Below are positions 44,121 to 52,580 of a DNA stretch of 64,000 bases, one piece after another. A model generated the notes under the pieces. It did not search any database. It saw nothing but the letters and a program-made list of their open reading frames with translations, and was not told where the DNA came from. How positions within the stretch are numbered: position 1 is the first letter of the stretch; each line of letters opens with the position of its first letter. The translations under genes and the position numbers were made by a program. Origin of the DNA: Eubacteriales bacterium (GTDB taxonomy: Bacteria; Bacillota; Clostridia; Oscillospirales; CAG-272); contig JAZQWL010000032.1 of assembly GCA_045632305.1 (NCBI GenBank), positions 39,393 through 103,392 of the forward strand, in the 5' to 3' direction.

Positions 44121-47100
44121 CTATTTACTAAGCATAATCTTACCGTTTTGCACCGTAAATCCGCACAATTCGGCAAGTCGCGCTCGTTTCTCCTTGCTGA
44201 TCTTAAGAGAAAGTATGTAACGAAGCAGAAGCTGATTTGCACGTGCGGCGCTAACACCCGGTATATCACCATCTTTGATAGTGTACCCCTGCGCGCAGAT
44301 AAGCAAAAGCTTCTCTGCGGGAGTGAGATCGATCTTGTTGATAGCCGCAACGACCTTGGCCCTCTTGCTGCCGGCAACCGCCTTACCGTCTCTTCCTATA
44401 TCGCTCTCGAAGCCCTTTGTCAGCGCGCGTACTACGGCAATCTTGTTAATACCGATTGCCTCGCAAAGCAAAACGGTGTTGCCATTATCTGCACCGAGGA
44501 CCAAGCTCTCCGCTACGTCCTCGATAAGATCCTCCGCATAATCCATAGCGAGATCCTTTTGCTCAGCATTAAGCAAACTGAAGCCCTTCGCATTCGTGAT
44601 CTGCGCAGCATCCTTTGCGAGCTTCTCACGCGTCTGCTCAAGCGCCACCTTCTGCTCCTCAGAGAGAGTGTACATCTGATCCCCGACAAATACCGTATAT
44701 CCTGCATCCTCAAGATCTCTCTTGATAGCAAGATATTCGCTTGTAGCCGCCCTGACAATAAATCTTCTCTCGAACTTACCTTCGTTCGCAATCTCGGTTA
44801 TAATACTCTGATACGTCTTCGCATCCCCCTCAAGCTTCGCCTTAGCGGCGGCCTCGATTCGAGGATCGTTATCACGGAGCGCAGTCCTGAGCGCCGTATC
44901 TGCGGAAGAATCGTCCTTATATCTGCCGCGTACTCTGTTGTAGTGCTTCGTATCGCCCTTTATAATAGCTTTATACATCTCGTCACCGTTAGTAATATCG
45001 TTGTCGATGATCTTGCTGATTATAAGCCCGTCAAAGCCCTCCTTTACCGCATATCCGAAGCCCGCAGCAGTCGCCTTCTCCCCTGATACAACTCCGCGAA
45101 CAACGTTTACCAAGCCCCTCGCATCACGAAGGACGTTTCGAAGCGGTATGCCAAACAAAGAAGCAAACGTTCCGCTGAAATCATAGATTTTCTCTCCCCA
45201 CGTTTTATTTTCGGAGGATAGCCCGGATATTGCGTTATAAAGATCCGCAAACACCGCCATGTCGGTTCTTTCAATGTCATAGCCCTGGCATATCGAATAG
45301 ATATCCTTGAGGAACGGGAACCACGTCATGGGATTCATCTGCTCCAAATTCTTGCTTATAAACGAGGTTGCGTACTTTTCAAAATACGTCTTATCCTCGT
45401 CATCATCACGCGCCGCATATACGAAAGATGACAGGAACGCATTCATAATAGATGCCACAAGAATAGATCCGAGGACCGCGCCGAGCTTCTTTTTCTGTCC
45501 CCTTGAGAACTGAACGGCCGCGAGGATAACTTCACTTGCGATCGTCGTGGGCTCTGCCATAAATGCGGTCGCCATCTTCCATCCGGTATCCTTAGAGCGC
45601 ATAAGCTCGCTTCGTGAAAGCGTGGAGTCGTAAACCTGAGTTTTTGTTATTACCTCAGTAAAGCGCTCCCCGGCAAGAGTGAGAAGCTCTTCCGAGTCTA
45701 TCTTAAGCTCGGGATGCTTGTCCGCCTGCTCACGCTTACACGCCTCAAATATCTGTATCCACGTAAGTTTGTCCGCCTCGGACGCTAAGAATCCATAAGT
45801 GCTCTCTCGGTAATCCTTATCCTTAAAGAAGCCCTTGAGCTTTTCCTTTGCGCCCTTGTATTCATTCGCGGTAATATAAGCACCGAGCGTCTGGCCCGTA
45901 CCGGTGTCAAAGCCGCCGATTTCCTTTATGATGGCCACAGGCGCGTATTTCTTGACTTGTTCCCAACGCTCACCGCTTTTATTAAGCTTAGGGATCGCCG
46001 CAAAATACTTGGGATTTATCATAGAGAACGCGCGCGCTATCGACGAGGGCTGTTGTGCTACAACCGAAAGCGACATTGCGACCGCGCTCTTCTTGTACTT
46101 GCTGATAAGCTTATCAAGTGTCTGAGAGGGCGCCGCGCTTACCGCGCCGCCGTTAAGATCTCGCAGGAGCTGTTCGATATACCTGATCGGAACGGTGCCG
46201 TATCTTGACCGTATAACCTCTTTCACGGAATCGTATTTGTTGATGTCAGCATTTGCCTTACCGTCAACGACGTCCGCGTCAAGCCCGAAGGAATTGCGGT
46301 AATTAAGCAGCGCATTCATGTCCTCCATGGGAAGCGTCATACCGTGATAAAGTGCCATATCGTTGACGTGACGCTTCCATACGTCCATAAAGTCCATCAG
46401 CACGAGAGGATTCTTAGCGTCGGGGGTCAACTTCTTTGTCATTCCCTTGTTTTTTATCTTGGGATCTCCCGTCTTGCCCGTCTGCGAATCAAGAAATTCG
46501 CTCGCTACGATCATAGGAAGATAGAACTCGTCGTTAAAGAGCTTAATTCCGTGCAGCTGCAACGATACCTCGTTGCCCTTTTCTGCAAGGTTCTTTGAGA
46601 GGTATTTCTGCATATCCTCAACGAAGCCAATCTGTTCGTCAGTCAGACCGAGAGCTGAAGCCATCTTCATAATGGTTATCTCGTCCACCGTATAACGTTC
46701 AGAATCCGCTACAAGACGCCCAAGCGTCAAACCCTTTCCCTTATCGTTCTTACCCTTGTAAGTCGCATCAGGATCGAATATAAAGCCGCCGTTCTTTAAG
46801 TGGTCGTGAGAGGCTTTGCGTCGACTGTATGCATATAGCGACATCTTCTGACCGAGCGTGAGCTGCACCTTTCTGCCGCCGATCTCGACCGTGTCTCTCG
46901 TATCCATGTCCCAACCGCGGAAACCGTATTTGTCTGCAACAGACCTAAAATACTCGCCCGCCTCAACGCCGTCACGTGCCCAAACATCCTCGCCGGCACG
47001 GAGATTTAAAAATGCTTGATTGAGCGTGTCAGAGCCCAAAATCTCAAAGAAATGTAGTGGCTTTAAGCTCTTCCATATCAAACTGTTATCTCTGAAGGCG

Positions 47101-52580: not shown

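Follow-up and report, generated by a model that had tools for sequence, protein, structure and literature searches.

A giant head-module gene of a Clostridia prophage and its predicted polyvalent product: two conserved arms around an exchangeable effector cassette

The 64,000 nt of contig JAZQWL010000032.1 analysed here (the window) contain a single 8.46 kb ORF among the head genes of a prophage, and the question is whether a phage really makes one protein of this size from this position and, if so, what the protein does. A first-pass annotation made from the sequence had taken it for a candidate polyvalent protein. A prediction from 2017 holds that polyvalent proteins are payloads of several effectors that enter the cell with the phage DNA, but to our knowledge very few of them have been studied experimentally. 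The features identified are listed in Table 1.

The gene is a real ORF. Translation from the ATG start to the stop codon, which is included in the coordinates, is uninterrupted, as first described, and 2,819 consecutive sense codons would arise by chance with a probability of (61/64)^2819 ~ 1e-59 (our estimate, with all codons taken as equally frequent). The start codon is 6 nt past the stop of the upstream gene and is preceded by a GGGG stretch. An identical protein (P0001) is present in NCBI on a 157-kb contig. As a single polypeptide contains both terminal parts in >110 homologues of 2,500-3,800 aa, the giant is not the product of a frameshift or an assembly fusion, and the ORF-breaking assembly error against which the first-pass annotation had warned is contradicted.

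Table 1. Features of the head module and of the giant ORF (window positions; all on the minus strand)
Feature	Position	Strand	Residues	Evidence or remarks
TerS	57956-58669	-		Gene order of head module
TerL	56440-58011	-		Gene order of head module
Portal protein	54437..56443	-		phrog_156, E = 5.7e-39
Fast-evolving gene between portal and giant	52587..54437	-	616 aa	Syntenic partner
Giant ORF, predicted polyvalent protein	44121..52580	-	2,819 aa, about 310 kDa	ORF listing and translation
Conserved N arm	49566..52580	-	aa 1-1005	About 110/119 homologues cover aa 50-1000
Gly/Ala-rich helical region	51681..52493	-	aa ~30-300	G+A fraction 0.25-0.44
Predicted zincin-like metallopeptidase module	49701..50363	-	aa ~740-960	HExxH and predicted fold
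Low-GC effector cassette	48216..49565	-	aa 1006-1455	PBECR, ART and linker; GC3 shift
MuF_C/PBECR predicted RNase-like domain	49068..49388	-	aa 1065-1171	Pfam PF18819
ART-PolyVal domain	48276..48899	-	aa 1228-1435	Pfam PF18760; ~100-aa helical insert
DIRYAL linker motif	48243..48260	-	aa 1441-1446	3' end of cassette; at GC3 change-point
Semi-conserved helical spacer	46881..48215	-	aa 1456-1900	Common only to nearest relatives
Conserved C arm, all-helical	44124..46880	-	aa 1901-2819	About 100-110/119 homologues; core aa 1902-2625
Conserved membrane-type hydrophobic helix	45411..45488	-	aa ~2365-2390	KD over 19 residues 1.95
Scaffold-like protein	42564..43520	-	318 aa	Long acidic N-terminus then helical region; directly upstream of MCP
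Major capsid protein (MCP)	41496..42542	-		Phage_capsid_4, 30.6 bits vs cut-off 27; Mu-like gpT; phrog_371

Because the host genes YqfD and PhoH end at 31488, the visible part of the prophage starts at about 32-33 kb and reaches the end of the window, and with this extent the earlier figure of ~27 % of the visible phage for the giant gene stands. The order on the minus strand is TerS, TerL, portal, the 616-aa gene, the giant, two tiny ORFs, the scaffold-like gene and the MCP. Four relatives (L001-L004) have the same order of TerS, TerL, portal, intervening gene, giant, scaffold-like gene and MCP, and in every relative examined the giant lies strictly between the portal and the scaffold/MCP. 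The position first given, after the portal and before the scaffold, is correct as to the head module, but the 616-aa gene separates the portal from the giant. This neighbour has no PHROG, Pfam or NCBIfam match, its roughly 20 homologues have no Pfam domain either, and in relatives a gene for 450-760 aa stands in its place. A role as the MuF/gp7 equivalent was considered and is unsupported, as there is no Phage_Mu_F match and the homologues have no Pfam domain. The 318-aa protein gave no family match; its gene keeps its place beside the MCP in relatives, and sequence character and position suggest a scaffold. The region past the MCP (about 8.5 kb) contains 7 ORFs, none of which matches a tape-measure or tail-tube protein. 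Two products, of 889 aa and 306 aa, were considered as a T7-like nozzle and adaptor, and PDB sequence searches with both returned no match. The tail module is probably short, and the virion may be of the short-tailed type.

This setting bears on whether the giant is itself a tail protein. Some tape-measure proteins are long and helical, with Gly-rich or hydrophobic segments and a peptidase motif, and the giant is likewise very long, largely helical, Gly-rich with hydrophobic segments, and has a peptidase motif. However, its gene is one of the head genes and precedes those for the scaffold-like protein and MCP instead of following tail-tube or chaperone genes, no beta-rich repeats of the kind found in fibres are predicted, and no tape-measure or fibre match was found in Pfam, PHROG, NCBIfam or fold searches, the sensitive searches by which the first-pass annotation had thought such an identity might emerge. 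Relatives with near-identical arms also differ about 1.5-fold in length through inserted globular enzyme domains, a spread that is incompatible with a length ruler. We therefore regard a tape-measure, fibre or other tail structural protein as very improbable.

When the giant was scanned with Pfam in 8 segments (E<=10), the only matches were MuF_C, ART-PolyVal and an EcoRI-family match that overlaps MuF_C (E = 0.001, below its cut-off), and NCBIfam returned nothing for the giant or four neighbours. The only match in a PDB sequence search was a designed helical bundle (E = 0.075), which is due to the acidic low-complexity region of the giant. The N-terminal Phage_Mu_F domain is absent even in segment scans at E<=10, and Pfam gave no match to a lysozyme, a transglycosylase or any peptidoglycan hydrolase. 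A virion RNA polymerase of the N4 vRNAP or crAss-like type was also considered; no RNA polymerase catalytic domain was matched by Pfam or PDB sequence searches of the giant or by Foldseek searches of the arms against PDB. Position, the lack of family matches and the one-piece homologues led us to reject the tape-measure, vRNAP and assembly-artefact readings.

The homologues that cover the N arm are 36-48 % identical to the window protein, and this arm has a GC3 of 0.57. Its Gly/Ala-rich region, in which aa 101-200 are 44 % G+A, was modelled as helical with low pLDDT and includes invariant glycines (G39, G43, G54, G61, G108, G113, G115, G153, G158, G179, G183, G280, G281 and G284). The initial description of a Gly/Ala-rich hydrophobic N-region holds for the composition but not for strong hydrophobicity. 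The one HExxH motif of the giant is at aa 812-816 (window 50133-50147), and H812, E813, H816, E897 and E904 are invariant among 37 diverse relatives. In the AlphaFold model, a helix is followed by three strands (776-796) and the HExxH helix (802-820), with pLDDT 85-93. No Pfam model covers the module and no significant PDB fold match to a named clade was found; a local Foldseek comparison with the zincin PprI/IrrE was non-significant (probability 0.72, E = 1.2). The HExxH helix, a downstream Glu and a three-stranded sheet with flanking helices are those of a zincin-like metallopeptidase as modelled, and bear out the metallopeptidase-like module first proposed.

Between the arms, the cassette differs in composition from the rest of the gene. 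GC3 is 0.33 within it and 0.58 in the remaining gene (Fisher p = 5e-22), and the cassette value is also lower than in the phage genes (0.52) and host genes (0.45) of the window. The change-points, codons 1006 and 1455, match, in frame, the end of the N arm and the DIRYAL linker, and just 10-50/119 homologues cover the cassette. As judged from the GC3 difference, the cassette is a recent import from a lower-GC source. A search for flanking direct repeats as a signature of recombination found only chance-level matches of 14-16 nt. So sharp a GC3 discontinuity in the middle of a gene could also point to an assembly chimera or a sequencing-error fusion of separate genes, but the one-piece homologues come from different assemblies and are independent, each with N arm, cassette and C arm in a single ORF, and the coincidence of the GC3 boundaries with domain and linker boundaries also argues against it. 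Moreover, this MuF_C+ART dyad recurs in the corresponding position of two homologues (P0007 and P0010) with 50-63 % identity; full-length best alignments of these two to the window protein are 39-41 % identical, which also speaks for a recent import. The chance that the ORF is an artefact is negligible.

The match to PF18819 (E = 7.9e-15 to 6.9e-16, 55-59 bits vs a cut-off of 27.6) identifies MuF_C, which is the PBECR domain with the barnase/EndoU/colicin/RelE fold of Iyer et al. 2017 (PMC5512222), and agrees with the barnase/EndoU-type nuclease-like module of the first-pass annotation. The MuF of phage Mu itself is thought to be inactive (PMC5512222). Candidate PBECR residues in the giant, based on 3 close sequences only, are H1057, H1070, H1071, S1134 and T1138. 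The ART-like module was also foreseen, as was the linker, now placed at aa 1424-1444; the module corresponds to PF18760 (E = 2e-13 to 2e-16, 52-61 bits vs a cut-off of 31.2). H1237 (in YHxT), Y1284 and D1399 (in YDG) are >=93 % conserved among 30 ART copies of the family, and the giant thus has the predicted H-Y-D active-site configuration of ART-PolyVal (Tox-ART-HYD2-like). From the published motif description (PMC5512222), the H, Y and D would be on strands 1, 2 and 5. The motif D[IVL]R[YFW], mostly followed by [AS]L, occurs at module ends in the family proteins, 0.96 times per protein compared with 0.2 in shuffled sequences.

The PBECR+ART dyads closest to that of the giant are in unrelated small proteins, which also supports its import. 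Among free-standing genes, the nearest MuF_C+ART dyads have ordinary host chromosomal neighbourhoods and are not in phages, so the dyad can work without a virion. This favours a reading in which the giant is never packaged, its gene is a bystander in the late operon, and the protein acts in the producing or lysogenic cell, for instance as a superinfection exclusion factor or abortive weapon directed at competing phages, or as a late enzyme of host takeover. Iyer et al. also considered that host-captured polyvalent proteins could target incoming elements (PMC5512222), and Foldseek searches of the arms against PDB and hhalign against phi24B gp47 found no similarity to known virion proteins. However, its place between portal and scaffold/MCP is strictly kept, and an accessory role is hard to square with about 20-27 % of the genome being spent on one late gene. 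The conserved arms, membrane-type helix and invariant putative zincin resemble an apparatus for delivery and processing, and an analogue, phi24B gp47, is abundant in virions. Action in the producing cell is quite unlikely.

Beyond the cassette, the spacer is covered by about 10-12/119 homologues and has a normal GC3 of 0.60; PHROG 22978 starts within it, at aa 1591. The sequence past the linker, first put at about 1,000 residues, in fact amounts to 1,373. The C arm has no Pfam, NCBIfam or PDB match, but a phmmer search with its core found 3,918 clusters (50 % identity) at E<=1e-3 and 2,725 at E<=1e-30. Consequently, the view that the C-terminal half cannot be assigned is right in that no Pfam model exists, and wrong if taken to mean that it is unique, as the core is found in about 3,900 clusters. 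Foldseek comparison of the C arm with BFVD gave 34 matches at E<=1e-3, all to C-terminal pieces of polyvalent proteins from uncultured phages, and a weak match (E = 3e-3) to a protein of Tenacibaculum phage Gundel_1 labelled 'Structural protein'. The arm models are moderately confident (pLDDT 64-65, pTM 0.33-0.37), and neither arm had a Foldseek match at E<=1e-3 in PDB (entries to April 2026); the non-significant matches were to membrane transporters, helical repeats and the cyanophage A4 pre-ejectosome (E = 0.87).

The hydrophobic helix of the C arm follows a basic cluster and is followed by an acidic DEDE cluster, and 35/37 family members have the same charge pattern and a KD >=1.4. Where a TM hairpin had been proposed, there is one clearly hydrophobic helix with a weaker amphipathic helix ahead of it. 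The helix could alternatively be a buried core helix. Long helical arms with one conserved membrane-type helix, in a phage with a probably short tail module, also fit a mainly structural protein of an ejection conduit or internal core (like T7 gp15/gp16, P22 gp7/16/20 or the N4 ejectosome) that would carry DNA across the Gram-positive envelope, with the enzyme domains secondary or wall-degrading, and exactly this role was proposed for gp47 by the authors of the phi24B study. However, the lack of any Pfam match to a wall-degrading domain in the giant argues against it, PBECR and ART domains target RNA and proteins or nucleic acids rather than the cell wall (PMC5512222), and rapid exchange of cargo suits an arms race better than a structural role. 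Sequence and fold searches with the arms detected no homology to podovirus ejectosomes (T7 gp14-16, P22 gp7/16/20, N4/DEV), which lowers the claim of membership but not that of a similar mode of action. We consider a mainly structural role unlikely; it may overlap with the explanation preferred below, the arms being the conduit and the cassette the effectors.

In the coverage map of 119 homologues, the family has a constant N arm (aa ~1-1005), a constant C arm (aa ~1901-2819) and a variable centre, which is 544 to 2,338 aa long in homologues. Pairs with arms that are 87-94 % identical have merely 22-34 % of the centre in common. Other cargoes in relatives are PBECR3, PBECR5, LPD23, LPD38, DUF3990 and M78, and one protein has three ART copies. 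Prophages with this family were found in 47 species-level genomes, mostly of Clostridia. In INPHARED, there was no DNA match and just 5 weak protein matches, hence no cultured relative in that collection. A pattern scan of viral contigs gave just 5 loci, because the patterns, taken from N-arm columns, were confirmed against the C arm. The alignments indicate that the two arms are retained across thousands of relatives around a swappable cassette.

By its predicted domains, the giant is a real member of the polyvalent-protein class described by Iyer, Burroughs, Anand, de Souza and Aravind (2017, J Bacteriol; PMC5512222); the class itself is not novel. At least two disparate activities are predicted in one chain (zincin HExxH, PBECR/MuF_C and ART-PolyVal), the domain families are characteristic (PF18760 and PF18819 here; PBECR3, PBECR5, LPD23 and LPD38 in relatives), and the gene is a late/virion gene of a portal-terminase phage with a conserved order. 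The polyvalent-protein concept invoked at the outset is thereby upheld, with both Pfam domains above curated cut-offs, the zincin residues invariant and the head-gene position kept. Shared with the published set are the combination of zincin, PBECR (MuF_C) and ART-PolyVal, the virion-gene setting, the mosaic of domains, and the predicted delivery with DNA and zincin autoprocessing, for which Iyer et al. gave the rationale (PMC5512222). Unlike that set, the ~1,000-aa N arm and ~900-aa C arm match no Pfam LPD/polyvalent family, and the effectors are in a central slot between constant arms.

An analogue of the same size is gp47 (2,811 aa) of the short-tailed temperate Stx phage phi24B. Proteomics/mass spectrometry detected gp47 in virions, where it is abundant; the cryo-EM map does not show it, and its proposed role is that of an ejection protein carried inside the capsid (bioRxiv 10.64898/2026.04.10.717836). 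Like the giant, gp47 is a giant polyvalent protein with HExxH and a MuF_C module (BLAST E = 3e-9). However, MuF_C is the sole common module (hhalign of the family alignment, probability 0.24), the other gp47 domains (LPD1, LPD5 and LPD38) differ, the phi24B host is Gram-negative, and the gp47 gene is at the far genome end after the tail genes and not near the portal. Giant ORFs have also been reported in gut Clostridia prophages, namely phi1 and phi4 of C. clostridioforme LM41 (PMC11318856), and as gp69 of the Bcep22-like podovirus JC1 (PMC9144972). These resemble the giant, by description, as single ORFs of >=8 kb that take up ~20 % of a temperate phage genome and encode polyvalent-protein domains (LPD3, LPD38), but these ORFs occupy the 3' end of the genome, and the cargo differs (LPD3; in JC1 lytic transglycosylase, methylase and helicase). 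Published work thus already covers the class, its domains and giant ORFs of this kind from gut Clostridia prophages.

MuF/SPP1 gp7 and MuF toxins share with the giant a position downstream of the portal, the MuF C-terminal (PBECR) domain and the notion of variable toxins or effectors fused to a head-associated carrier (PMC5512222). The giant differs in having no N-terminal Phage_Mu_F domain, in its internal and not C-terminal effectors, and in its size, which is about 5 to 10 times theirs. T4 Alt, P1 DarB/DdrB and N4 vRNAP are large or enzymatic proteins that travel in the head and enter the cell with the DNA, where they protect the phage genome or modify the host; Alt is an ADP-ribosyltransferase (PMC5512222). 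A zincin module is also present in N4 vRNAP and P1 DdrB (PMC5512222). However, no sequence or fold similarity to any of these proteins was found, the ART of the giant belongs to the H-Y-D and not the R-S-E clade of T4 Alt, and the giant has no RNA polymerase, methylase or helicase domain.

Gene position and these analogues make it probable that the capsid contains the giant and that the protein enters the host. The best explanation, which we hold with reasonable but not high confidence, is a polyvalent chassis with swappable cargo that is delivered to the host. The protein would be made late and loaded into the procapsid via the conserved arms, and its own zincin would cleave it, possibly at DIRYAL-type linkers. 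Its exit route would be the portal and tail, before the DNA or along with it, and the hydrophobic helix and Gly-rich helices might engage the host membrane, in the manner of short-tailed phage ejection proteins. Once released, the ART and RNase-like modules would alter host proteins and RNA right at the start of infection, so as to blunt defence or take control of the cell, and the swapping of cassettes would reflect an arms race with host defences. A further, tentative proposal is that the arms are an undescribed delivery chassis of Clostridia and other uncultured phages, which would dock in the procapsid, build or take part in a trans-envelope conduit by way of the conserved membrane helix, and use the zincin to free cargo at DIRYAL-type linkers. 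It would be a phage counterpart of polymorphic toxins, with internal cargo that is exchanged with host-chromosomal dyad genes.

The finding refines and extends the polyvalent class and opens no new category. If the reading of a chassis with cargo is true, the arms are a large unannotated family of about 3,900 clusters with no Pfam model, the DIRYAL linkers and zincin offer a testable processing mechanism, and reading the contents of the slot could uncover new anti-defence effectors. The locus is a clean example, with two constant arms and a slot that visibly received new content in the recent past, of a family with thousands of natural variants in gut Clostridia phages.

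The giant gene is a single unbroken minus-strand ORF, which begins with ATG and encodes 2,819 aa according to the ORF listing and the translation, and the uninterrupted 8.46-kb reading frame described in the first-pass annotation was thus confirmed. Under a uniform codon model, we estimate the chance of a run of this length to be ~1e-59. The ATG is located 6 nt past the stop codon of the upstream gene and is preceded by a GGGG stretch. YqfD and PhoH, which belong to a spore-forming Firmicute host, end at position 31488, placing the start of the prophage at ~32-33 kb. As the prophage runs from here past the window end, the earlier figure of ~27 % of the visible phage for the giant holds. 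At the host-operon end of the prophage, neither an integrase nor an attachment site was identified; the other end lies outside the window.

Features of the prophage and the adjoining host region
Feature	Position	Strand	Match or remark
Small terminase	57956-58669	-	phrog_3064, weak GP3_package
Large terminase	56440-58011	-	phrog_2, Terminase_6N
Portal	54437-56443	-	phrog_156, E = 5.7e-39
616-aa protein between portal and giant	52587-54437	-	no family match
Giant	44121-52580	-	between 616-aa gene and two tiny ORFs
Two tiny ORFs between giant and scaffold-like gene	43754-43954, 43530-43670	-	first with zinc-ribbon-like CPHC...CRRC pattern
Scaffold-like 318-aa protein	42564-43520	-	long acidic N-terminus; putative scaffold
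Major capsid protein	41496-42542	-	Phage_capsid_4, Mu-like gpT
363-aa protein	36216-37307	-	DUF6273/Hoc-like decoration match (phrog_10993, PF19789); presumed tail or receptor-binding region
Antisense ORFs (312-429 aa)	41553-42677, 42702-43991, 44148-45086	+	antisense to capsid, scaffold-like and giant genes
YqfD, sporulation protein	30304-31488		host gene
PhoH	29250-30332		host gene
Host operon	24685-31488		YqfD, PhoH and GTPase-like phrog_31529 match; abuts prophage

The 616-aa protein is fast-evolving, with ~20 homologues and no Pfam domain. Its syntenic counterparts in relatives are 450 to 760 aa, some with a faint Hint-domain signal, and genes of 54 and 43 aa are found in relatives at the place of the two tiny ORFs. 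The translations of the antisense ORFs are low-complexity and hydrophobic, and these therefore look like spurious shadow ORFs. Past the major capsid protein gene, which is followed by a conserved pair (~300 and ~885 aa), there are only ~8.5 kb and seven ORFs, none of which matched a tape-measure or tail-tube protein. Read from this gene content, the virion is probably short-tailed.

Only two Pfam families are significant in the giant, namely MuF_C (PF18819; aa 1065-1171; 55-59 bits, cut-off 27.6) and ART-PolyVal (PF18760; aa 1228-1435; 52-61 bits, cut-off 31.2). Iyer et al. 2017 (PMC5512222) placed MuF-C in the PBECR clade of phage barnase/EndoU/colicin/RelE-fold predicted RNases and defined ART-PolyVal, a relative of Tox-ART-HYD2, as an ADP-ribosyltransferase of the H-Y-D type. 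By these definitions, the modules first called barnase/EndoU-like and ART-like had been correctly recognized. Across 30 aligned ART copies of the family, conservation is at least 93 % at H1237 (YHxT), Y1284 and D1399 (YDG); for candidate catalytic residues of the PBECR domain, the comparison comprised only three close sequences. The HExxH motif, previously read as part of a metallopeptidase-like module, occurs once (aa 812-816), and no Pfam model matched this module. H812, E813, H816, E897 and E904 do not vary across 37 diverse relatives, and in the AlphaFold model these residues lie within a helix, three-strand, helix unit (pLDDT 85-93), which matches the arrangement described for the zincin core (PMC5512222). 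Together with the two Pfam domains and the head-module synteny, the intact zincin motif and ART triad support the original proposal, and the giant very probably belongs to the polyvalent-protein class. As it has no Phage_Mu_F domain, it falls outside the MuF/gp7 family. Identification as a tape-measure protein or as a virion RNA polymerase was also rejected.

A search of the protein database gave 775 relatives, mostly 2,500-3,800 aa and all with polyvalent-protein Pfam domains. When BLAST coverage was mapped onto the giant for 119 of these, aa ~50-1000 and ~1900-2819 were covered by ~110 and ~100-110 homologues, respectively, and aa 1000-1900 by only 10-50. The length between the arms (aa ~1-1005 and ~1901-2819 in the giant) ranges from 544 to 2,338 aa across relatives, and the central cargo includes PBECR3, PBECR5, LPD23, LPD38, DUF3990 and a peptidase of the M78 type, with as many as three ART copies. 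In some pairs, the arms are 87-94 % identical, yet only 22-34 % of the centre is in common; the homologues P0077 and P0111, for example, have centres of 1,538 and 765 aa. The coverage pattern and the divergent centres between near-identical arms indicate that in this gene a constant chassis surrounds a central slot whose content is exchangeable.

The relatives come from 47 species-representative genomes. These are almost exclusively MAGs of Clostridia (Christensenellaceae, Eubacteriales, Oscillospiraceae, Acutalibacteraceae and others) recovered from guts of human, mouse, sheep, deer, rabbit and chicken. Many of the relatives are on contigs of 100-800 kb, indicating that they are prophages, and the gene order flanking the giant is conserved. 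INPHARED contained no cultured relative. In two relatives (L001:28420-30011 and L002:29121-30011), where the giant is 3,336 aa, a diversity-generating retroelement (bAvd-like accessory gene and RVT_1 reverse transcriptase) lies directly downstream of the tail genes.

GC3 is 0.33 at codons 1006-1455 of the giant versus 0.58 elsewhere in the gene (Fisher p = 5e-22), with change-points at codon 1006, where the N-terminal arm stops, and codon 1455, nine residues past the DIRYAL motif. In the window, the remaining phage genes (0.52 ± 0.05) and the host genes (0.45 ± 0.03) likewise exceed this cassette in GC3. In the homologues P0007 and P0010, which are 39-41 % identical to the giant in the best full-length alignment, the MuF_C and ART dyad is 50-63 % identical. 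When the cassette alone was used as query, the top matches covered 96 % of it at 52-57 % identity, and these are free-standing proteins of 450-780 aa with little beyond the dyad. No DNA repeats were found flanking the cassette. Judged from its sequence, the cassette came in by recent import. Two free-standing dyad loci (L058:7001-8944 and L059:7001-8377; 458-647 aa) lie in ordinary chromosomal neighbourhoods (spoIIIA operon, sigma-70, glutamine synthetase and, also nearby, RNase J), not in phage, and some clusters of such proteins hold >200 member sequences. Hosts may have captured the free-standing genes as copies, or the phage cassette may derive from such genes. A local GC3 dip (0.40) at 50480-50780 (minus strand; aa ~600-700), before the zincin module, falls on a Glu/Asn/Ala-rich low-complexity stretch (aa ~645-715), whose poor model confidence suggests a flexible linker inside the N-terminal arm.

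Both arms are almost wholly helical in moderate-confidence AlphaFold models (pLDDT 64.8 for the N-terminal arm and 63.9 for the C-terminal arm, the latter confident for the last ~290 residues only), and neither had a significant match in solved structures, NCBIfam or Pfam. PHROG 22978 (function unknown) spans aa 1591-2612. A phmmer search of 1.84 billion representatives with the C-arm core (aa 1902-2625) found 3,918 clusters at E<=1e-3 and 2,725 at E<=1e-30, with proteins up to 4,650 aa; the distribution of this core is thus very wide. Among viral predicted structures, the C-terminal arm had 34 significant Foldseek matches, in every case to the C-terminal part of a long protein from an uncultured gut or marine phage, named 'PolyVal ADP-ribosyltransferase', 'Nuclease', 'MuF C-terminal domain-containing' or 'Large polyvalent protein-associated domain'. 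The transmembrane hairpin reported previously is more aptly read as one membrane-type helix of the C-terminal arm (aa ~2365-2390; KD 1.95) with an amphipathic helix upstream. The hydrophobic helix is retained in 35 of 37 relatives; a basic cluster always stands before it and an acidic DEDE cluster after it.

The linker motif D[IVL]R[YFW], mostly with [AS]L directly behind it, averages 0.96 copies per family protein versus 0.2 in shuffled sequences. It is found at module ends, behind ART copies and other modules and at the junction of N-terminal arm and cassette in the homologue P0008. The single copy in the giant (aa 1441-1446) delimits the imported cassette on its 3' side. We hypothesize that the zincin cuts at this motif.

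The polyvalent-protein class dates from 2017 (PMC5512222), when packaging, injection and zincin autoprocessing were already proposed for it. Giant ORFs that carry polyvalent domains and take up ~20 % of the genome are known from C. clostridioforme prophages (PMC11318856) and Bcep22-like podoviruses (PMC9144972). In the short-tailed Stx phage phi24B, virion proteomics showed that the 2,811-aa polyvalent gp47 is packaged, and a role as an ejection protein was proposed for it (bioRxiv 10.64898/2026.04.10.717836). MuF_C is the sole module gp47 has in common with the giant (BLAST E = 3e-9; hhalign probability 0.24), and the gene position differs. On this comparison, gp47 is an analogue, not an orthologue.

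Overall, we somewhat favour a polyvalent chassis-and-cargo protein that is packaged, self-processed and ejected, with effectors acting early in the host. The protein would be made late and loaded into the procapsid by its arms, the zincin would self-process it, perhaps at DIRYAL linkers, and it would be expelled along with the DNA. The hydrophobic and Gly-rich helices would engage the membrane, and the ART and RNase-like modules would act early on host targets. The giant adds to a known class and is not a new kind of protein; the value of the finding lies in how cleanly chassis and cargo are laid out, in a cassette import that can be dated and in how large the unannotated arm family is.
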